The notes under the pieces were generated by a model. That model saw nothing but the letters and a program-made list of their open reading frames with translations. It searched no databases and was not told the DNA's origin. 64,000 bases of DNA from Escherichia phage Ec_MI-02, in sequence record OP856590.1, one strand, 5' to 3'. Below, one piece after another: positions 45,397 to 55,375 of the stretch. The position numbers and the translations under genes were made by a program. Numbering within the stretch: the stretch's first letter is position 1; the number at the start of each line of letters is the position of its first letter.

Positions 45397-45404
45397 TATA
45401 AATA
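45397..45404 (+). promoter_or_regulatory. late promoter motif upstream of gene 34
   Basis: exact TATAAATA 35 nt upstream of ATG 45439. Confidence 0.6.
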
Positions 45405-45438: not shown

Positions 45439-48400
45439 ATGGCCGAGATTAAAAGAAAGTTCAGAGCAGAAGATGGTCTGGACGCAGGTGGCGATAAAAT
45501 AATCAACGTAGCTTTAGCTGATCGTGCCGTAGGAACTGACGGTGTTAACGTTGATTACCTAATTCAAGAAAACACAGTTCAACAATACGATCCAACTCGT
45601 GGATATTTAAAAGATTTTGTAATCATTTATGATAACCGTTTTTGGGCTGCTATAAATGATATTCCAAAACCAGCGGGAGCTTTTAATAGCGTACGCTGGA
45701 GAGCATTACGTACTGATACTAATTGGACAACTGTTTCATCAGGACCTTATCAATTAAAGTCAGGTGAATCAATTTCAGTTAATACTGCAGCAGGAAATGA
45801 TATCACATTTACTTTGCCAACTTCTCCAATTGATGGAGATACTATCGTTCTTCAAGATATTGGTGGAAAACCCGGAGTTAACCAAGTTTTAATTGTAGCT
45901 CCAGTGCAAAGTATTGTAAACTTTAGAGGCGAACAAGTACGATCAGTACTAATGACCCATCCAAAATCACAGATAGTTTTAATTTTTAGTAATCGTCTGT
46001 GGCAAATGTATGTGGCTGATTATAGCAGAGAAGCGGTAGTTGTGACGCCAGCAAGTCTCTACCAGGCGCAGTCAAACGATTTTATCGTGCGCAGATTTAC
46101 TTCTGCTGCACCGATAAATATTAAACTTCCGAGATTTGCTAATCATGGCGATATTATTAATTTCGTTGATTTAGATAAATTAAATCCTCTTTATCATACA
46201 ATTGTTACTACATATGATGAAACTACATCAGTACAAGAAGATGGAACTCATTCGATTGAAGGACGTACATCGATTGACGGTTTCTTGATGTATGATGATA
46301 ATGAGAAATTATGGAGATTATTTGACGGGGATAGTAAAGCACGTTTACGTGTTATAACAACTAATTCTAATATTCGTCCAAACGAAGAAGTTATGGTATT
46401 TGGTGCGAATAATGGAACAACTCAAACAATTGAACTTCAGCTTCCGACCGATATTTCCATTGGCGATACTGTTAAAATTTCCATGAATTACATGAGAAAA
46501 GGCCAAACAGTTAAAATCAAAGCTGCCGGTGAAGATAAAATTGCTTCTTCAGTTCAATTGCTGCAATTCCCAAAACGTTCAGAATATCCACCTGAAGCTG
46601 AATGGGTGACTGTTCAAGAATTAGTTTTTAACGGTGAAACTAATTATGTTCCAGTTTTACAACTTGCTTATATCGAAGATTCTGACGGAAAATACTGGGT
46701 TGTACAGCAAAACGTTCCAACTGTAGAAAGAGTTGATTCTTTAAATGATTCTACTAGAGCAAGATTAGGTGTGATTGCTTTAGCTACACAAGCTCAAGCT
46801 AACGTCGATTTAGAAAATTCTCCACAAAAAGAATTAGCAATTACTCCAGAAACATTAGCTAACCGTACTGCTACAGAAACTCGTAGAGGTATCGCAAGAA
46901 TAGCAACCACTGCTCAAGTGAACCAGGACACTACATTCTCTTTTGCTGATGATATTATCATCACTCCTAAAAAGCTGAATGAAAGAACTGCTACAGAAAC
47001 TCGTAGAGGTGTTGCTGAAATTGCTACACAGCAAGAAACTAACGCAGGTACTGATGATACTACAATCATCACTCCTAAAAAGCTTCAAGCTCGACAAGGT
47101 TCTGAATCATTATCTGGTATTGTAACCTTTGTATCTACCGCAGGAGCTACTCCAGCTTCTAGTCGTGAATTAAATGGTACAAATGTTTATAATAAAAACA
47201 CTAATAATTTAGTTGTTTCGCCTAAAGCACTGGATCAATATAAAGCTACTCCAACGCAACAAGGTGCAGTAATTTTAGCAGTTGAAAGTGAAGTAATTGC
47301 TGGACAAAGCCAAGAAGGATGGGCAAATGCGGTTGTAACTCCAGAAACGTTACATAAAAAGACATCAACTGATGGAAGAATTGGTTTAATTGAAATTGCT
47401 ACGCAAAGTGAAGTTAATACAGGAACTGATTATACTCGCGCAGTCACTCCTAAAACTTTAAATGACCGTAAAGCAACTGAAAGTTTAAGTGGTATAGCTG
47501 AAATTGCTACGCAAGTTGAATTCGACGCAGGCGTCGACGATACTCGTATCTCTACACCATTAAAAATTAAAACCAGATTTAATAGTACTGATCGTACTTC
47601 TGTTGTTGCTCTATCTGGATTAGTTGAATCAGGAACTCTCTGGGACCATTATACCCTTAATATTCTTGAAGCAAATGAGACACAGCGTGGTACACTTCGT
47701 GTGGCTACACAAGTTGAAGCTGCTGCAGGAACATTAGATAATGTTCTAATAACTCCTAAAAAGCTTTTAGGTACTAAATCTACTGAAGCGCAAGAAGGCG
47801 TTATTAAAGTTGCAACTCAATCTGAAACTGTAGCTGGAACGTCAGCAAATACTGCTGTATCTCCAAAAAATTTAAAATGGATTGTGCAGAGCGAACCTAC
47901 TTGGGCAGCAACTACTTTGGTAAGAGGTTTTGTTAAAACTTCATCTGGTTCAATTACATTCGTTGGTAATGATACAGTTGGTTCAACGCAGTCATTAGAC
48001 TTGTACGAGAAAAATAGCTATGCAGTATCGCCATATGAATTAAACCGTGTATTAGCAAATTATTTGCCGTTAAAGGCAAAAGCTGCTGACACGAATTTAT
48101 TGGATGGTCTAGATTCATCCCAGTTCATTCGTAGGGATATTGCGCAGACGGTTAATGGTTCACTAACCTTAACTCAACAAACGAATCTGAGTGCCCCTCT
48201 TGTATCATCTAGTACTGCTACGTTTGGTGGATCAGTTTCAGCAAATAGTACACTAACTATTTCTAATACTGGAACAGAAACTCATTTGATTTTTGAGAAA
48301 GGACCTCAAACTGGAACTAACCCTGCACAGACGATGACTGTTAGAGTGTGGGGGAATCAATTTAGTGGGGAATCAAACACAACACGTTCTACCGTATTTG

Positions 48401-49308
48401 AAGTTAGTGATGAAACATCTTATCACTTTTATTCTCAACGCGATAAAGATGGTAATATAGCATTTAGCATTAATGGTACTGTAATGCCAATAAATGTGAA
48501 TGCTTTAGGTTCTTTGAACGCGAACGGCGTTGCAACATTCGGTAGTTCAGTTACTGCTAATGGCGAATTTATCAGTAAATCGTCGAATGCTTTTAGAGCA
48601 ATAAACGGTGATTATGGATTCTTTATTCGTAATGATGCTGCTAACACCTATTTTATGCTTACTGCATCTGGTGATCAGACTGGTGGATTTAATGGATTAC
48701 GTCCATTATCAATTAATAATCAATCTGGTCAGGTTACAATTGGTGAAAGCTTAATCATTGCCAAAGGTGCTACTATAACTTCAGGTGGTTTAACTGTCAA
48801 CTCGAGAATTCGTTCTCAGGGTACTAAAACCTCTGATTTATATACTCGTGCGCCAACATCTGATACTGTAGGATTCTGGTCAATCGATATTAATGATTCA
48901 GCCACTTATAACCAGTTCCCGGGTTATTTTAAAATGGTTGAAAAAACTAATGAAGTGACTGGGCTTCCATACTTAGAACGTGGCGAAGAGGTTAAATCTC
49001 CTGGTACATTGACTCAGTTTGGTAACACACTCGATTCACTTTACCAAGATTGGATTACTTATCCAACGACTCCAGAAGCACGTACCACTCGCTGGACGCG
49101 TACATGGCAGAAAACCAAAAACTCTTGGTCAAGTTTTGTTCAGGTATTTGATGGAGGTAACCCTCCTCAGCCGTCTGATATCGGTGCTTTACCATCTGAT
49201 AATGCTACAATGGGGAATCTTACTATTCGTGATTTCTTACGAATTGGTAATGTTCGCATTATTCCTGACCCAGTGAATAAAACGGTTAAATTTGAATGGG
49301 TTGAATAA
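45439..49308 (+). CDS. 34: long tail fiber proximal subunit gp34
   Basis: 1289 aa with internal tandem sequence repeats. Confidence 0.95.
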   Translation: MAEIKRKFRAEDGLDAGGDKIINVALADRAVGTDGVNVDYLIQENTVQQYDPTRGYLKDFVIIYDNRFWAAINDIPKPAGAFNSVRWRALRTDTNWTTVSSGPYQLKSGESISVNTAAGNDITFTLPTSPIDGDTIVLQDIGGKPGVNQVLIVAPVQSIVNFRGEQVRSVLMTHPKSQIVLIFSNRLWQMYVADYSREAVVVTPASLYQAQSNDFIVRRFTSAAPINIKLPRFANHGDIINFVDLDKLNPLYHTIVTTYDETTSVQEDGTHSIEGRTSIDGFLMYDDNEKLWRLFDGDSKARLRVITTNSNIRPNEEVMVFGANNGTTQTIELQLPTDISIGDTVKISMNYMRKGQTVKIKAAGEDKIASSVQLLQFPKRSEYPPEAEWVTVQELVFNGETNYVPVLQLAYIEDSDGKYWVVQQNVPTVERVDSLNDSTRARLGVIALATQAQANVDLENSPQKELAITPETLANRTATETRRGIARIATTAQVNQDTTFSFADDIIITPKKLNERTATETRRGVAEIATQQETNAGTDDTTIITPKKLQARQGSESLSGIVTFVSTAGATPASSRELNGTNVYNKNTNNLVVSPKALDQYKATPTQQGAVILAVESEVIAGQSQEGWANAVVTPETLHKKTSTDGRIGLIEIATQSEVNTGTDYTRAVTPKTLNDRKATESLSGIAEIATQVEFDAGVDDTRISTPLKIKTRFNSTDRTSVVALSGLVESGTLWDHYTLNILEANETQRGTLRVATQVEAAAGTLDNVLITPKKLLGTKSTEAQEGVIKVATQSETVAGTSANTAVSPKNLKWIVQSEPTWAATTLVRGFVKTSSGSITFVGNDTVGSTQSLDLYEKNSYAVSPYELNRVLANYLPLKAKAADTNLLDGLDSSQFIRRDIAQTVNGSLTLTQQTNLSAPLVSSSTATFGGSVSANSTLTISNTGTETHLIFEKGPQTGTNPAQTMTVRVWGNQFSGESNTTRSTVFEVSDETSYHFYSQRDKDGNIAFSINGTVMPINVNALGSLNANGVATFGSSVTANGEFISKSSNAFRAINGDYGFFIRNDAANTYFMLTASGDQTGGFNGLRPLSINNQSGQVTIGESLIIAKGATITSGGLTVNSRIRSQGTKTSDLYTRAPTSDTVGFWSIDINDSATYNQFPGYFKMVEKTNEVTGLPYLERGEEVKSPGTLTQFGNTLDSLYQDWITYPTTPEARTTRWTRTWQKTKNSWSSFVQVFDGGNPPQPSDIGALPSDNATMGNLTIRDFLRIGNVRIIPDPVNKTVKFEWVE

Positions 49309-49316
49309 GAGGTATT

Positions 49317-50432
49317 ATGGAAAAATTTATGGCAGAGTTTGGACAAGGATATGTCCAAACGCCATTTTTATCGGAAAGTAATTCAGTAAGATATAAAATA
49401 AGTATAGCGGGTTCTTGCCCGCTTTCTACAGCAGGACCATATGTTAAATTTCAGGATAATCTTGTCGGAAGTCAAACATTTAGCGCAGGTCTTCATTTAA
49501 GAGTTTTTGACCCTTCCACTGGAGCATTAGTTGATAGTAAGTCATATGCTTTTTCGACTTCAAATGATACTACATCAGCTGCTTTTGTTAGTTTCATGAA
49601 TTCTTTTTCAAACAATAGACTTGTTGCTATATTAACTAGCGGAAAGGTTAATTTTCCTCCTGAAGTAGTATCTTGGTTAAGAGCAGCAGGAACGTCTGCT
49701 TTTCCATCTGATTCTTTATTGTCAAGATTTGACGTATCATATGCTGCTTTTTACACTTCTTCTAAAAGAGCTATTGCATTGGAGCATGTTAAACTAAGTA
49801 ATAGAAAAAGCACAGATGACTATCAAACTATTTTAGATGTTGTATTTGACAGTTTAGAAGACGTTGGAGCTACAGGATTTCCTAAAAGAACATATGAAAG
49901 CGTTGAGCAATTTATGTCAGCAGTCGGTGGAACTAATAACGAAATTGCACGTTTACCAACTTCATCCGCGATAAGTAAACTCTCTGATTATAATTTAATT
50001 CCTGGCGATGTTCTTTATCTTAAAGCGCAGTTATACGCTGATGCAGATTTACTTGCGCTTGGAACTACAAATATATCAATCCGTTTTTATGATGAATCGA
50101 ATGGATATATTTCTTCAACACATGCTGAGTTTACTGGACAAGCCGGGTCATGGGAATTAAAGGAAGATTATGTAGTTATTCCAGAAAATGCAGTAGGATT
50201 TACGATATATGCACAAAGAACTGCACAAGCAGGTCAAGGTGGCATGAGAAATTTAAGCTTTTCTGAAGTATCAAGAAATGGCGGAATTTCAAAACCTGCT
50301 GAATTTGGCGTCAACGGTATTCGAGTTAATTATGTCTGCGAATCTGCTTCACCTCCGGATATAATGGTACTTCCTACGCAAGCATCGTCTAAAACTGGTA
50401 AAGTGTTTGGGCAAGAATTTAGAGAAGTTTAA
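49317..50432 (+). CDS. 35: long tail fiber hinge protein gp35
   Basis: 371 aa after gene 34. Confidence 0.9.
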   Translation: MEKFMAEFGQGYVQTPFLSESNSVRYKISIAGSCPLSTAGPYVKFQDNLVGSQTFSAGLHLRVFDPSTGALVDSKSYAFSTSNDTTSAAFVSFMNSFSNNRLVAILTSGKVNFPPEVVSWLRAAGTSAFPSDSLLSRFDVSYAAFYTSSKRAIALEHVKLSNRKSTDDYQTILDVVFDSLEDVGATGFPKRTYESVEQFMSAVGGTNNEIARLPTSSAISKLSDYNLIPGDVLYLKAQLYADADLLALGTTNISIRFYDESNGYISSTHAEFTGQAGSWELKEDYVVIPENAVGFTIYAQRTAQAGQGGMRNLSFSEVSRNGGISKPAEFGVNGIRVNYVCESASPPDIMVLPTQASSKTGKVFGQEFREV

Positions 50433-50437
50433 ATTGA

Positions 50438-50455
50438 GGGAGCCTTCGGGTTCCC
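50438..50455 (+). terminator. stem-loop after gene 35
   Basis: GGGAGCC-TTCG-GGTTCCC then T-run. Confidence 0.65.
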
Positions 50456-50463
50456 TTTTTCTT

Positions 50464-50471
50464 TATAAATA
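50464..50471 (+). promoter_or_regulatory. late promoter motif upstream of gene 36
   Basis: exact TATAAATA 24 nt upstream of ATG 50495. Confidence 0.6.
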
Positions 50472-50494: not shown

Positions 50495-51151
50495 ATGGCT
50501 GATTTAAAAGTAGGTTCAACAACTGGAGGCTCTGTCATTTGGCATCAAGGAAATTTTCCATTGAATCCAGCCGGTGACGATGTACTCTATAAATCATTTA
50601 AAATATATTCAGAATATAATAAACCACAAGCTGCTGATAATGATTTCGTTTCTAAAGCTAATGGTGGCACGTATTTAAATAAAGTAATTTTTAATAAAGG
50701 AATGACTGTTCCCGGTGCAGGGTCAGGTGACAATGGTATTTTTGCTGGTCCTGGTGATAATGCCACGTATGATACTACAAATATGGATATTGTTTCGTGG
50801 TATGGTATTGGTTTTAAATCATCACAAGGTTCAGCGGGTAGAACTGTAGTAATTAACACACGAAATGGAGATATTAGCTCAAAGGGTGTAATTGAAGCAT
50901 CACAAATACGCGCAACTTCATTATCTCCAGTAAATAATTATGACCTTACACGGAAAGATTATGTCGATGGAGCAATAAATATTGTTACAGCAAACGCAAA
51001 CTCTAGGGTATTACGCTCTGGAGATACTATGACAGGTAACTTAACCGCGCCAAACCTTTTTTCGCAGAATCCTGCATCTCAACCATCACATGTTCCACGA
51101 TTTGATCAAATTGTTATTAAGGATTCTGTTCAAGATTTCGGCTATTATTAA
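50495..51151 (+). CDS. 36: long tail fiber distal subunit gp36
   Basis: 218 aa before gene 37. Confidence 0.9.
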   Translation: MADLKVGSTTGGSVIWHQGNFPLNPAGDDVLYKSFKIYSEYNKPQAADNDFVSKANGGTYLNKVIFNKGMTVPGAGSGDNGIFAGPGDNATYDTTNMDIVSWYGIGFKSSQGSAGRTVVINTRNGDISSKGVIEASQIRATSLSPVNNYDLTRKDYVDGAINIVTANANSRVLRSGDTMTGNLTAPNLFSQNPASQPSHVPRFDQIVIKDSVQDFGYY

Positions 51152-51159
51152 GAGGACTT

Positions 51160-53862
51160 ATGGCTACTTTAAAACAAATACAATTTAAAAGAAGCAAAAC
51201 CGCAGGAGCACGTCCTGCCGCTTCAGTATTAGCCGAAGGTGAATTGGCTATAAACTTAAAAGACCGTGTACTTTTTACTAAAGATGACCAAGGAAATATT
51301 ATTGATCTGGGTTTTGCTAAAGGCGGTAGCATTGACGGGAATGTTATTCATATAGGAAATTATAATCAAACTGGTGATTATACTTTAAATGGAACCTTCA
51401 CTCAGACAGGTAATTTTAATTTAACTGGTATTGCTCGAGTAACTCGTGATATTATTGCCGCTGGGCAGATTATGACTGAAGGTGGGGAACTTATTACAAA
51501 AAGTTCAGGTACAGCGCATGTTCGTTTTTTCGATAGCAATAGCCGCGAACGCGGAATCATTTATTCACCGGCTAATGATGGATTAACTACACAAGTACTT
51601 AATATCAGGGTTCAAGACTACGCCGCTGGTAGCGAAAGCACTTATGCATTTTCAGGCAATGGCCTATTTACTTCACCTGAAGTATCAGCATGGAAATCTA
51701 TGTCAACTCCTCAGATTTTGACCGATAAAGTTATTACAGATGGGAAGAAGACAGGCGATTATGATATCTATTCATTATCAAATAACACTCCATTGGCAGA
51801 AAGCGAAACGGCTATTAACCACCTCCGTGTTATGCGAAATGCTGTAGGAGCAGGTATTTTCCACGAAGTTAATGTTAATGACGGAATAACCTGGTATTCC
51901 GGAGATGGCTTAGACACTTATATTTTGTCGTTTAACTGGGCCGGTGGATTGAAAGCCGGTCATTCTATTTCTGTAGGTCTTCCAGGTGGCCCTAAAGGAT
52001 ATTCTGAATTAGGAACAGCTTCAATTGCCCTCGGTGATAATGATACCGGATTTAAATGGCATCAAGATGGGTATTTCCATACAGTAAACAACGGAACAAA
52101 AACTTTCATTTACGGTCCTGCGGAAACACAAAGCCTTAGAAAAATGGTTATGGGTTATTCTCCGGATGGTATTCTCATGACAACGCCACCGACAGAAAAC
52201 TATGCTCTTGCTACTGTCGTAACATATCATGATAATAATGCGTTTGGAGATGGCCAGACTCATTTAGGTTATTATCAAGGCGGTAATTATCATCACTATT
52301 TCCGCGGTAAAGGTGTCACAAACATTAATACTCATGGCGGTTTGTTAGTTACTCCTGGTAATATTGATGTTAATGGCGGTTCGGTTAATATTGACGGTCG
52401 TAATAATGCTTCTACCGTGATTTTTAAAGGAAATACAACCGGTTATAGTTCAGTTGATAATGTGGAAATCAAAGTTTGGGGTAATACCTTTACTAATCCT
52501 AGTGAAGGCACCCGTAAAAATGTCATGGAAATTTCTGACGCAACTAGTTGGATGAGCTATATTCAACGAACAACTGCAGGTAAAGTCGAATCGGTTATAA
52601 ATGGTACCCAGATTGTTAATGAAAACTTGACAGTAGTAAAAAATGCTACATTTGACGGTACAATCAGCGCAGCCGGTGAAATCGCGGCAAATGCTGTAAA
52701 TGCGCTTCGCATTTGGAACGCAGATTATGGAGCCATTTTTAGACGTTCAGAAGGCAGTCTTCATATTATTCCAACTGCCTATGGTGAAGGTAAACATGGC
52801 GATATTGGTCCACTTCGCCCGTTTAGCATGGCTTTAGATACTGGTAAAGTCACTATTCCAGATTTACAATCAAGTTACAATACGTTCGCAGCAAACGGTT
52901 ATATTAAATTTACTGGTCACGGAGCAGGCGCTGGTGGTTATGATATTCAATATATTCAAGCAGCTCCTATTTTCCAGGAAATCGATGATGACGCAGTAAA
53001 TAAATATTATCCTATTGTTAAACAGAAGTTTTTAAACGGTAAAGCTGTTTGGTCTTTAGGTACTGAAATTAATTCGGGTACATTCGTTATTCATCATCTG
53101 AAAGAAGATGGTTCACAAGGCCATACGTCTCGTTTTAATCAAGACGGTACTGTTAACTTCCCAGATAACGTTTCTGACCCACAAGCTATATATGAATTTC
53201 ACCATAACGGAACTCTGTATGTTCCTAACATGGTTAAAACTGGAGCAAGATTATCAGCTGGCGGCGGCGACCCGGTGTGGACTGGGCCATGTCTTGTTAT
53301 TGGTGATAATGATACTGGTTTAGTCCATGGCGGTGATGGCCGAATCAATATGGTTGCCAATGGTGTTCATATTGCTTCATGGTCATCTGCTTATCATCTC
53401 CATGAAGGTCTTTGGGATACTACTGGTGCTTTGTGGACTGAGCAAGGAAGAGCTATTATTTCTTTTGGTCATTTAATCCAACAGAGTGATGCCTATTCTA
53501 CATTTGTCCGTGATGTTTATGTCCGTTCTGATATTCGCGTTAAAAAAGACCTCGTTAAATTTGAAAATGCTTCTCAGAAGCTTTCTAAAATTAACGGTTA
53601 CACTTATATGCAGAAGCGAGGCCTGGATGAGGAAGGTAATCAGAAATGGGAACCTAACGCTGGTTTAATTGCTCAAGAAGTTCAAGCTATTTTACCAGAA
53701 TTAGTTGAAGGCGACCCTGATGGTGAAGCTTTACTTCGTTTGAACTATAACGGTGTAATTGGTTTAAATACAGCTGCAATCAATGAGCATACTGCAGAAA
53801 TTGCAGAACTTAAATCAGAAATCGAAGAACTTAAAGCATTAATTAAATCATTGTTAAAATAA
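51160..53862 (+). CDS. 37: long tail fiber distal subunit gp37 with C-terminal intramolecular-chaperone-like domain
   Basis: 900 aa; C-terminal about 111 aa begin with SDIRVKKDL (self-cleaving chaperone-type motif) and end in a coiled-coil-like segment. Confidence 0.9.
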
Positions 53863-53867
53863 TAAGA

Positions 53868-53881
53868 GGGGCTTCGGCCCC
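53868..53881 (+). terminator. stem-loop between genes 37 and 38
   Basis: GGGGC-TTCG-GCCCC directly upstream of the gene 38 RBS; possibly attenuating. Confidence 0.45.
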
Positions 53882-53893
53882 TTGGAGGTTTAT

Positions 53894-54688
53894 ATGGCAG
53901 TAACAGGACCGTGGGTAGGATCGTCTGCAGTAGTTAATACAGGACAAAATTGGATGGGTGGTGCGGCCCAACGATTAAGAATGGGCATTCCGTTCTGGAT
54001 GAGTAATATGATAGGTCGATCTGTTGAAGTAATTCACACACTTGGAGCAGACCATAACTTCAATGGTCAATGGTTCCGAGATAGATGTTTTGAGGCAGGT
54101 AGTGCACCTATAGTGTTTAATATCACCGGAAATTTGGTATCATATTCCAGAGACGTTCCTTTATTCTTCATGTACGGAGATACACCAAATGAATATGTTC
54201 AGTTGAATATTATTGGTGGAGCTCATATGTGGGGAAGAGGCGGACAAGGTGGATGGACTCATTCTGGTGGAGATGGTAATGGCCAACAAGGTGGGCATTG
54301 TATTCAAAATGATATTGGTGGACGATTAAGAATTAATAACGGCGGAGTAATTTGTGGCGGCGGTGGCGGCGGTGGCGGTATCGCTTATCGTTCTCACTCT
54401 GGTGCAAACTGGCGGGATATTGGTGGCGGTGGAGGAAGACCATTTGGCCCAGGAGGTGGCGGTGGTTATTCAGGAGGTGCTGCTTCTTATGATGGCCCAG
54501 GAGGCGGTTATAATTATGGTAATGCTCACTCTGGACAGGGTGGTGATGCTGGTGCAAATGGACAAAATGCCTGGCATGATGGCGGTAAAGTACTAAAAGT
54601 CGGGGCTGGCGGGGCTGCAGGTTATGCTGTCATAGGGTCTACGCCAACATGGCAAAATGTTGGCGTAATATATGGTCCAAGAGTATAA
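53894..54688 (+). CDS. 38: tail fiber adhesin gp38 (T2-type, glycine-rich motifs)
   Basis: 264 aa from ATG 53894; poly-Gly runs (GGGGGGGG, GGGGG, GGGGG) separated by variable segments. Confidence 0.85.
54353..54480 (+). repeat. GGN-codon runs encoding the gp38 glycine-rich motifs
   Basis: ggcggtggcggc-type repeats; they also generate spurious alternative-frame ORFs. Confidence 0.7.
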
Positions 54689-54718
54689 TTTGAATAAATA
54701 TCCTTAAAAGGAGGGTCT

Positions 54719-55375
54719 ATGGCAGCACCTAGAATATCATTTTCGCCCTCTGATATTCTGTTTGGTGTTCTAGATCGCTTGTTCAAAGATAACGCTACCG
54801 GGAAAGTTCTTGCTTCCCGGGTAGCTGTCGTAATTCTTTTGTTTATAATGGCGATTGTTTGGTATAGGGGAGATAGTTTCTTTGAGTACTATAAGCAATC
54901 AAAGTATGAAACATACAGTGAAATTATTGAAAAGGAAAGAAATGCACGCTTTGAATCTGTCGCCCTGGAACAACTCCAGATAGTTCATATATCATCTGAG
55001 GCAGACTTTAGTGCGGTGTATTCTTTCCGCCCTAAAAACTTAAACTATTTTGTTGATATTATAGCATACGAAGGAAAACTACCTTCAACAATAAGTGAAA
55101 AATCACTTGGAGGATATCCTGTTGATAAAACTATGGATGAATATGCAGTTCATTTAAATGGACGTCATTATTATTCCAATTCAAAATTTGCTTTTTTACC
55201 AACCAAAAAGCCTACTCCCGAAATAAATTACATGTACAGTTGTCCATATTTTAATTTGGATAATATCTATGCTGGAACAATAACCATGTATTGGTATAGA
55301 AATGATCATATAAGTAATGACCGCCTTGAATCAATATGTGCTCAGGCGGCCAGAATATTAGGAAGGGCTAAATAA
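54719..55375 (+). CDS. t: holin T
   Basis: 218 aa, MAAPRISFSPSDILFGVLDRLFKDNATGKV with a single TM segment. Confidence 0.95.
   Translation: MAAPRISFSPSDILFGVLDRLFKDNATGKVLASRVAVVILLFIMAIVWYRGDSFFEYYKQSKYETYSEIIEKERNARFESVALEQLQIVHISSEADFSAVYSFRPKNLNYFVDIIAYEGKLPSTISEKSLGGYPVDKTMDEYAVHLNGRHYYSNSKFAFLPTKKPTPEINYMYSCPYFNLDNIYAGTITMYWYRNDHISNDRLESICAQAARILGRAK

Follow-up and report, generated by a model that had tools for sequence, protein, structure and literature searches.

The distal long tail fibre of Escherichia phage Ec_MI-02 combines a gp37 with a predicted self-cleaving chaperone and an adhesin-type gp38

The analysis of the distal tail-fibre genes of Escherichia phage Ec_MI-02 places the receptor-recognition end of its long tail fibre, with a probability of about 0.9, on the T2/T6/S16 plan, in which a self-cleaving gp37 is combined with a gp38 adhesin. 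In the proposed mechanism, gp37 would be synthesised as a 900-residue precursor whose C-terminal 111-residue S74 chaperone drives trimerisation of the beta-helical gp37 tip, and the folded chaperone would then excise itself between Arg789 and Ser790 by means of Ser790 and Lys795. The excision would leave a trimer ending in DVYVR, which one copy of gp38 may cap, docking through W7, W20 and W35 and displaying five variable loops from a polyglycine-II (PGII) sandwich. These loops would most probably bind OmpA, and binding may depend to some extent on LPS.

The window, a stretch of 64,000 nucleotides, is the sequence of a published phage of the genus Tequatrovirus (OP856590), and its gp37 and gp38 have already been deposited in GenBank, labelled merely as tail fibre proteins. 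Gene 37 occupies 51160..53862 on the plus strand and encodes the distal long-tail-fibre subunit precursor (900 aa, an exact match to UZV41567.1), while gene 38 (53894..54688, plus strand, stop codon at 54686-54688) encodes the putative receptor-recognising adhesin (264 aa, 100% identical to the deposited Ec_MI-02 protein UZV41568.1). The listing of open reading frames puts the start of gp38 at a TTG at 53882, upstream of the ATG at 53894; we take the ATG as the real start because all homologues begin with MAV. The gene order is g37-g38-t: g38 immediately follows a g37 whose product carries the intramolecular chaperone (IMC) domain at its end, and it precedes the holin gene t (54719-55375; PF11031, E 2e-117). 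Upstream of g36, a pattern search found TATAAATA (50464..50471, plus strand), a late promoter motif of the T4 type, and no further copies between it and g38; this motif is the probable start of a g36-g37-g38-t late transcript. The g37-g38 spacer carries a UUCG-tetraloop hairpin (53866..53882, plus strand) directly 5' of the GGAGG Shine-Dalgarno sequence of g38, with an RNA fold of -14.1 kcal/mol; the same hairpin was also scored as a terminator-like site on the minus strand. Since the plus strand has no U-tract after the hairpin and the z score of the fold is merely -1.66, we interpret it as an intercistronic hairpin with a UUCG loop and not as a terminator. Sigma-70-like sites in the region are rarer than in shuffled sequences (14 vs 19), and both an intrinsic terminator and a sigma-70 promoter between g37 and g38 were rejected.

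The initial annotation had described a 900-residue gp37 whose last 111 residues form a domain opening at Ser790 (nt 53527) and closing in a helical segment, and all of these features lie where it had placed them. Its proposal that this end acts as an intramolecular chaperone is strengthened by a Pfam match and by an alignment with the S16 domain over its full length. The Peptidase_S74 IMC domain (residues 790-900; 53527..53859, plus strand) terminates in a C-terminal heptad helix, and a 21-nt tandem repeat lies in its helix-coding part (53795-53835). PF13884 covers residues 790-849 of the 900 (E 1.4e-12, 48.2 bits; cutoff 22), all 111 IMC residues align with the S16 gp37 domain (E 5e-32), many PHROG tail-fibre C-termini match residues 784-900, and the protein as a whole belongs to PHROG 1699, "long tail fiber protein distal subunit" (E 0). 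The IMC also matches the MYRF ICA domain, though distantly (E 0.03), and an NCBIfam search returned no matches for either gp37 or gp38. By homology, gp37 terminates in an intramolecular chaperone of the S74 family.

The position of the cut can be predicted from the published autocleavage site of S16 gp37, DLNVS^SDRRIKK (PMC7917993). Ec_MI-02 DVYVR^SDIRVKK lines up with it, and the cut falls at R789^S790, immediately before Ser790 as had been anticipated. Alignment of the cleavage motif marks Ser790 as the predicted nucleophile (53527-53529, plus strand) and Lys795 as its partner at Ser +5 (53542-53544, plus strand), with S790-D-I-R-V-K795 matching S16 S-D-R-R-I-K and MYRF D-L-R-A-K and both dyad positions kept. 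The catalytic Ser/Lys(+5) dyad of S74/ICA domains has been described in work on MYRF (PMC3742443), and our assignment follows the MYRF papers and not endosialidase residue numbers; a literature search for the endosialidase Ser911/Lys916 numbering found nothing. Processing of T2/T6 gp37 is known from the literature, and T2 gp37 retains VYIR followed by SDIRLK. By analogy with these systems, we infer that gp37 cleaves itself between Arg789 and Ser790 in Ec_MI-02. The distal tip left behind (residues 711-789; 53290..53526, plus strand) would end in DVYVR789 and is the predicted docking surface for gp38, consistent with the alignment of residues 711-900 with the crystallised S16 gp37 tip 6F45_A (E 1e-42) and with reports of gp38 docking on the cleaved gp37 end (PMC7917993, PMC6851490). 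The S74 domains of endosialidases and MYRF share the Ser-Lys(+5) dyad that opens a C-terminal domain after a trimeric beta-helix, and their cleavage depends on trimer folding, but their sequence similarity is distant, and in Ec_MI-02 the cut is predicted to create a docking face for a separate adhesin as well.

The next gene had been read as encoding a 264-residue gp38 adhesin, and family and structure searches bear this out. The protein matches PF05268 (E 8e-68, 229 bits; cutoff 25), Gp38_N (PF21721) over residues 1-40 (E 1e-21, 77 bits; cutoff 25), and PHROG 2056, "tail fiber protein; host specificity" (E 6e-110), and its sequence matches the gp38 structures of PP01 (9V85, E 1e-72) and S16 (6F45_D, E 3e-52). 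An AlphaFold2 model (pLDDT 86, mostly above 90 in the specificity domain) has three domains, namely a helical attachment domain, a beta-helix and a PGII sandwich, and the sole significant PDB matches of this model in Foldseek were 9V85 (E 8e-27) and 6F45_D (E 6e-23), with TM scores of 0.74-0.87. [quoted passage not shown] It contains W7, W20 and W35, each either invariant or reaching at least 90% conservation across 65 homologues; their docking role is known from the S16 structure. The polyglycine specificity domain (residues 114-245; 54233..54628, plus strand) was delimited by alignment with 9V85 and 6F45, by the AlphaFold2 model and by the glycine runs.

A different division of labour is found in T4, where the tip is borne by gp37 and gp38 is a chaperone. 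Were Ec_MI-02 of that type, gp37 would bear the receptor-binding tip and gp38 would be a mere assembly chaperone absent from virions, as might be read from some GenBank records of close homologues (wV7, HY03) that keep the name "distal long tail fiber assembly catalyst", which derives from T4. We regard this as extremely improbable: gp38 matches adhesin families PF05268 and PF21721 and solved adhesins only, gp37 carries no T4 needle-tip match and has the S74 domain at its end, and Pfam and PDB searches with both proteins gave zero matches to a T4-type gp37 tip or gp38 chaperone. The literature, moreover, explicitly separates T4-type from adhesin-type gp38, in agreement with the contrast that the initial annotation had drawn. 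Judged by sequence and predicted fold, gp38 is of the adhesin type (T2/T6/S16 class) and would be carried on the virion, as in relatives whose gp38 has been shown to sit at the tip of the virion fibre and to set receptor choice.

Alignment with gp37 and gp38 of T2 and S16 reveals an architecture common to all, although the designation "T2-type" describes the architecture and not the nearest relative. T2 itself has a processed gp37 C-terminus and a glycine-rich gp38, but its gp38 is just 40% and its gp37 C-terminus 28% identical to those of Ec_MI-02, its gp37 is 1341 aa long, and its receptors are FadL/OmpF. S16 (6F45; Dunne et al. 2018) shares the gp37 trimer tip and the S74 chaperone with its SD.R.KKD motif, which in S16 is autocleaved, together with the three docking tryptophans, the beta-helix and the PGII sandwich of gp38; it differs in gp38 identity (~45%), in its loops, in binding Salmonella OmpC and in the length of the IMC (113 vs 111 residues). 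The closest relatives belong to the PP01/RB32/FL08 group. PP01 (9V85; Terasaki et al. 2026, PMC12892980) has a gp37 that is 94% identical over the aligned residues, a nearly identical IMC, a nearly identical N-terminal half of gp38 and the same gp38 fold, yet it binds OmpC, has a divergent specificity cassette and carries an extra 209 aa in gp37.

Glycine makes up 26.5% of gp38 and 36% of residues 110-264, with runs at G155-162, G177-181, G187-191 and G203-205. That such runs are conserved and separated by variable segments had been noted from the single sequence and is now a measured property, because column entropy over residues 111-245 in a 65-sequence alignment is 0.79 bits at glycine and 1.78 bits at non-glycine positions. 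The entropy profile defines four hypervariable segments, all on the plus strand: HVS1 or loop A (residues 120-132; 54251..54289), HVS2 or loop B (163-176; 54380..54421), HVS3 or loops C-D (189-213; 54458..54532) and HVS4 or loop E (221-238; 54554..54607), of which HVS1, HVS3 and HVS4 were also placed by mapping of the PP01 loops. HVS2 contains the polymorphic sites 167 and 174 and differs from FL08, AV119, SH7, wV7 and KIT03. At the DNA level, a variable cassette of ~500 bp (54160-54660) is 51-71% identical to PP01, HY01 and Sfk20 and 92-96% identical to SH7, between flanks that are ~95-100% identical across the same four phages; the DNA comparison thus identifies the loop-coding ~500 bp as a swap cassette. 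The suggestion that the GGN repeats are recombination-prone was right in so far as such repeats exist and recombination at them has been reported in the literature. These repeats are short, however, comprising direct repeats of 15-25 nt and one tandem array of 9 nt x 2.8 (54354-54378), and the DNA identity profile together with Trojet et al. 2011 (PMC3157838) indicates that adhesin exchange would proceed mostly via the long conserved flanks and not via the glycine motifs.

The receptor was approached through adhesins with determined specificity. Ec_MI-02 gp38 is 96% identical to that of FL08 and 93-94% identical to that of AV119, figures that also hold for the specificity domain, and 91% identical overall to that of RB32, with 6 differing residues within 107-264. 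Its specificity domain clusters with the OmpA-specific "type 1" clade formed by these phages. FL08 and AV119 gp38 are "type 1" OmpA adhesins and experimentally OmpA-dependent (Lutz et al. 2025, PMC12032242), as are RB32 (OmpA/LPS) and RB33 (Trojet et al. 2011, PMC3157838). FL08/AV119 and RB32/RB33 resemble Ec_MI-02 in g37-g38-t order, gp38 length class and HVS set, but RB32 gp38 has a T6-like N-terminal attachment domain, unlike Ec_MI-02. Because FL08, AV119 and RB32 all depend on OmpA in experiments, we consider E. coli OmpA the likely receptor of Ec_MI-02 gp38 by sequence relationship, and binding may possibly show some LPS dependence; a literature search for receptor data on KIT03, wV7 and SH7 found none.

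A few loop substitutions could nonetheless have retargeted an adhesin of the same architecture to OmpC, Tsx, OmpF, FadL or OmpW, or mainly to LPS. A single HVS3 substitution (e.g. Q206L) turns OmpF to OmpW specificity in RB51/RB68, PST has gained OmpA use although it is only 3 residues from T6, and the O157 phage PP01 uses OmpC, O157:H7 being also the isolation host of Ec_MI-02. Relative to FL08, moreover, Ec_MI-02 gp38 has 8 specificity-domain differences in or near loops (among them S167V and R174K, both in loop B, and D200V, G201A, N207Q, A221G and H228S), and it carries one additional residue, inserted at G108. Such retargeting appears unlikely when weighed against the independently characterised FL08, AV119 and RB32/33, which have at least 93-96% specificity-domain identity and all need OmpA, and against the polymorphism of the variable positions inside that same OmpA clade. 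The R-x-H-S-G-A motif of loop B, a predicted OmpA contact (R165-A170 in FL08 gp38), is retained in Ec_MI-02, and the PP01 specificity domain is distant, at about 50-60% DNA identity. OmpA therefore stays the preferred receptor.

The gp37 of Ec_MI-02 is also 209 aa shorter than that of FL08. Protein alignments against PP01, FL08, Sfk20 and L007 place the junction of a 209-aa in-frame deletion at 53172..53173 (plus strand), where NFPDNV is joined to SDPQAIYEF, and the deleted 209 aa gave only sub-threshold Pfam matches, to gp37_trimer (E 0.17) and DUF4884. The 900-aa form could be an error of sequence assembly, or a defective allele, in a phage that truly has the usual ~1109-aa gp37: it is the sole member of its 90% cluster, a metagenomic contig carries a 1102-aa gp37 beside a 96%-identical gp38 (cluster member P0107), and the deleted and retained parts have a short repeat motif, APIF...YYPI.K.K, in common. 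Yet the reading frame is preserved exactly across the deletion junction, which is out of register with this repeat, so that a simple repeat collapse is unlikely, and the Ec_MI-02 phage was propagated and plaqued. HY01, which was sequenced independently, has a 912-aa gp37 that has lost the same module through a 197-aa deletion with different junctions. We rate the assembly error or defective allele as improbable. About even odds are given to the proposal that the missing part of the shaft is a spacer which can be dispensed with and has been lost repeatedly, and that Ec_MI-02 infects with a naturally shortened distal half-fibre.

The receptor-recognition module described here is a textbook one that is already known, and it adds nothing new to the field: the genetics of the gp37-IMC/gp38 system date from the 1980s and its structures from 2018 onwards, and receptor prediction from gp38 is routine. 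Its practical value lies in annotation, as Ec_MI-02 has been proposed for biocontrol of O157:H7, and the predicted use of OmpA points to the resistance mutations that may be expected and to suitable partner phages for a cocktail. With its short gp37, the phage is also a natural, if minor, case in which a change of shaft length is tolerated. If the spacer reading is true, a shorter half-fibre could change reach through O-antigen or capsule, and Ec_MI-02 gp37 would offer a minimal T2-type gp37 for engineering.

The analysis of the long-tail-fibre cluster in this segment of a Tequatrovirus (T4-like) genome places g34 at 45439-49308, g35, for the hinge protein gp35, at 49317-50432, g36 at 50495-51151, g37 (900 aa) at 51160-53862 and g38 (264 aa) at 53894-54688, followed 3' by the holin gene t (54719-55375) and then a strand switch to asiA. 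The gp37 and gp38 sequences match every residue of UZV41567.1 and UZV41568.1 from Ec_MI-02 (GenBank OP856590), a phage from pigeon faeces isolated on E. coli O157:H7, whose published description includes no fibre-tip analysis and names no receptor. The 24 kb around both genes is 95-97% identical in Shigella phages Sfk20, KNP5 and SH7. As a side observation, residues 58-123 of gp35 match PF15711 (ILEI, "interleukin-like EMT inducer"; E 1.2e-7) at 32.6 bits, above the curated cutoff of 27, a family not expected in a phage fibre hinge.

The initial annotation had proposed a T2-type tip in which a self-cleaving gp37 C-terminus is combined with a gp38 adhesin, and both this interpretation and the underlying description proved right, with the stated coordinates, the Ser790 codon, the 111-residue tail and the glycine runs separated by variable segments recovered exactly. 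Residue 790 begins at nt 53527, where the sequence reads SDIRVKKDL, and the last 111 residues finish as a heptad-patterned helix whose coding DNA contains a 21-nt tandem repeat. That the segment is an S74 intramolecular chaperone is established by Pfam, which places residues 790-849 in the Peptidase_S74 family ("chaperone of endosialidase") with an above-threshold E of 1.4e-12, and by an end-to-end alignment with the C-terminus of the crystallised Salmonella phage S16 gp37 construct (6F45; E 5e-32), the MYRF autocleavage domain aligning more weakly than S16. In S16, autocleavage at DLNVS^SDRRIKK releases the last 113 residues and uncovers the surface on which gp38 docks (PMC7917993); the Ec_MI-02 counterpart is DVYVR^SDIRVKK, and T2 retains VYIR|SDIRLK. 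Ser790 and Lys795 occupy the positions of the conserved catalytic S74 dyad, a serine and a lysine five residues on (PMC3742443), and processing of T2/T6 gp37 is established (Drexler et al. 1986, cited in PMC3157838). Because the aligned S16 site, the dyad, the T2 motif and T2/T6 processing coincide, we strongly infer that gp37 would be cut immediately before Ser790.

The assignment of gp38 to the T2/T6/S16-type adhesins was confirmed by family matches (PF05268, E 8e-68; PF21721, E 1e-21), by structure matches to the PP01 gp38 receptor-binding domain (9V85, E 1e-72) and S16 gp38 (6F45_D, E 3e-52), and by W7, W20 and W35, the conserved counterparts of the tryptophans by which S16 gp38 inserts into the gp37 trimer. 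An AlphaFold2 model built from a 65-sequence alignment (mean pLDDT 86) returned 9V85 and 6F45_D as its only significant matches in a Foldseek search of the PDB, with no other match below E = 1. Glycine makes up 26.5% of the protein, rising to 36% over the C-terminal 155 residues, and occurs in runs of 8, 5, 5 and 3; across residues 111-245, the 65-homologue alignment gives a mean entropy of 0.79 bits at glycines versus 1.78 bits between them, so that glycine positions are conserved and intervening positions variable. The contrast originally drawn with T4, where gp37 itself carries the receptor-binding tip and gp38 acts only as a chaperone, agrees with the literature. The Ec_MI-02 tip shows nothing of the T4 plan: gp37 terminates in the S74 domain, not in a needle that binds the receptor, and a profile search found no chaperone-family match for gp38. 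Close homologues in GenBank are annotated inconsistently, as "distal long tail fiber assembly catalyst," "tail protein and peptidase," "hypothetical protein," or "tail fibers protein"; the chaperone name carried over from T4 misdescribes an adhesin of this kind.

By mapping PP01 loops A-E together with the entropy profile, four variable stretches were defined in gp38 (residues 120-132, 163-176, 189-213 and 221-238). The protein is 96% identical to gp38 of FL08 and 93-94% to that of AV119, members of the broad-range "type 1" OmpA group that lose infectivity on delta-ompA (PMC12032242), and differs at only six positions within residues 107-264 from RB32, an OmpA-dependent phage with sensitivity to LPS composition (Trojet et al., PMC3157838). 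Because of this near-identity to three OmpA-dependent adhesins, with differences confined to a small number of polymorphic positions in the loops (167, 174, 200-201, 207, 221, 228 and 250), OmpA is the predicted receptor, with a probability of about 0.75-0.8, bearing in mind demonstrated cases in which one substituted loop residue switched gp38 from one porin to another.

A 100-bp DNA identity profile from the g37 end through t delimits the specificity cassette: identity over 54160-54660 falls to 51-71% with PP01, HY01 and Sfk20 but is 92-96% with SH7, while its flanks (the chaperone domain, the first 90 codons of g38, its last codons, and t) are about 95-100% identical in all four. The closest overall relatives of the genome thus carry another cassette. 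RB32 gp38 joins nearly the same specificity domain to a T6-like N-terminal attachment domain (MAVVGVPGWIG...); therefore, the two halves recombine independently. The GGN repeats, originally described as recombination-prone, are real but short. Trojet et al. (PMC3157838), who found exchange between glycine motifs in 0 of 14 chimeras, concluded that the flanks are the preferred exchange sites, and our profile fits this. At 54000-54750, across the gp38 specificity domain, GC rises to 0.46-0.49 versus about 0.35-0.40 nearby and GC skew to +0.32 versus about 0.1, owing to 70 GGN codons (29 GGT, 20 GGA, 17 GGC and 4 GGG).

The 900-aa length of gp37 is due to a clean in-frame loss of 209 shaft residues (PP01 672-880), as revealed by protein alignments with PP01, FL08, Sfk20 and one metagenomic contig, at the junction ...NFPDNV/SDPQAIYEF... 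(nt about 53172/53173). The 90% cluster of this gp37 contains no other protein; a short motif is common to the lost piece and the retained part, but the junction lies out of register with it. HY01 gp37 (912 aa) lacks the same module with other junctions (ARN/GNQEN), which makes its loss an independent event. A genuine, tolerated deletion is considered more likely than misassembly. Separately, residues 417-567 match the gp34 C-terminal trimerisation domain (PF21446; PDB 4UXE/5NXF, E about 1e-17), which reflects a module common to proximal and distal half-fibres.

The T4 late-promoter motif TATAAATA lies just upstream of g34 (45397-45404) and g36 (50464-50471), its 12 occurrences in the window being not above the chance expectation of 8.7 +/- 3.1. 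Because a pattern search found none between g36 and g38, the upstream copy suggests that g36, g37, g38 and t may form one late transcript. One GC-rich UUCG-tetraloop hairpin lies 3' of g35 (50436-50457); another, in the g37-g38 spacer (53866-53882), sits directly 5' of the g38 Shine-Dalgarno GGAGG and has a folding z-score of only -1.66 and no plus-strand U-tract.

The gp37 chaperone/gp38 system is already well known from genetics, structure and receptor prediction, and the Ec_MI-02 sequences are already deposited; what is added here is the OmpA receptor prediction, the boundaries of the specificity cassette and the shortened gp37 shaft.
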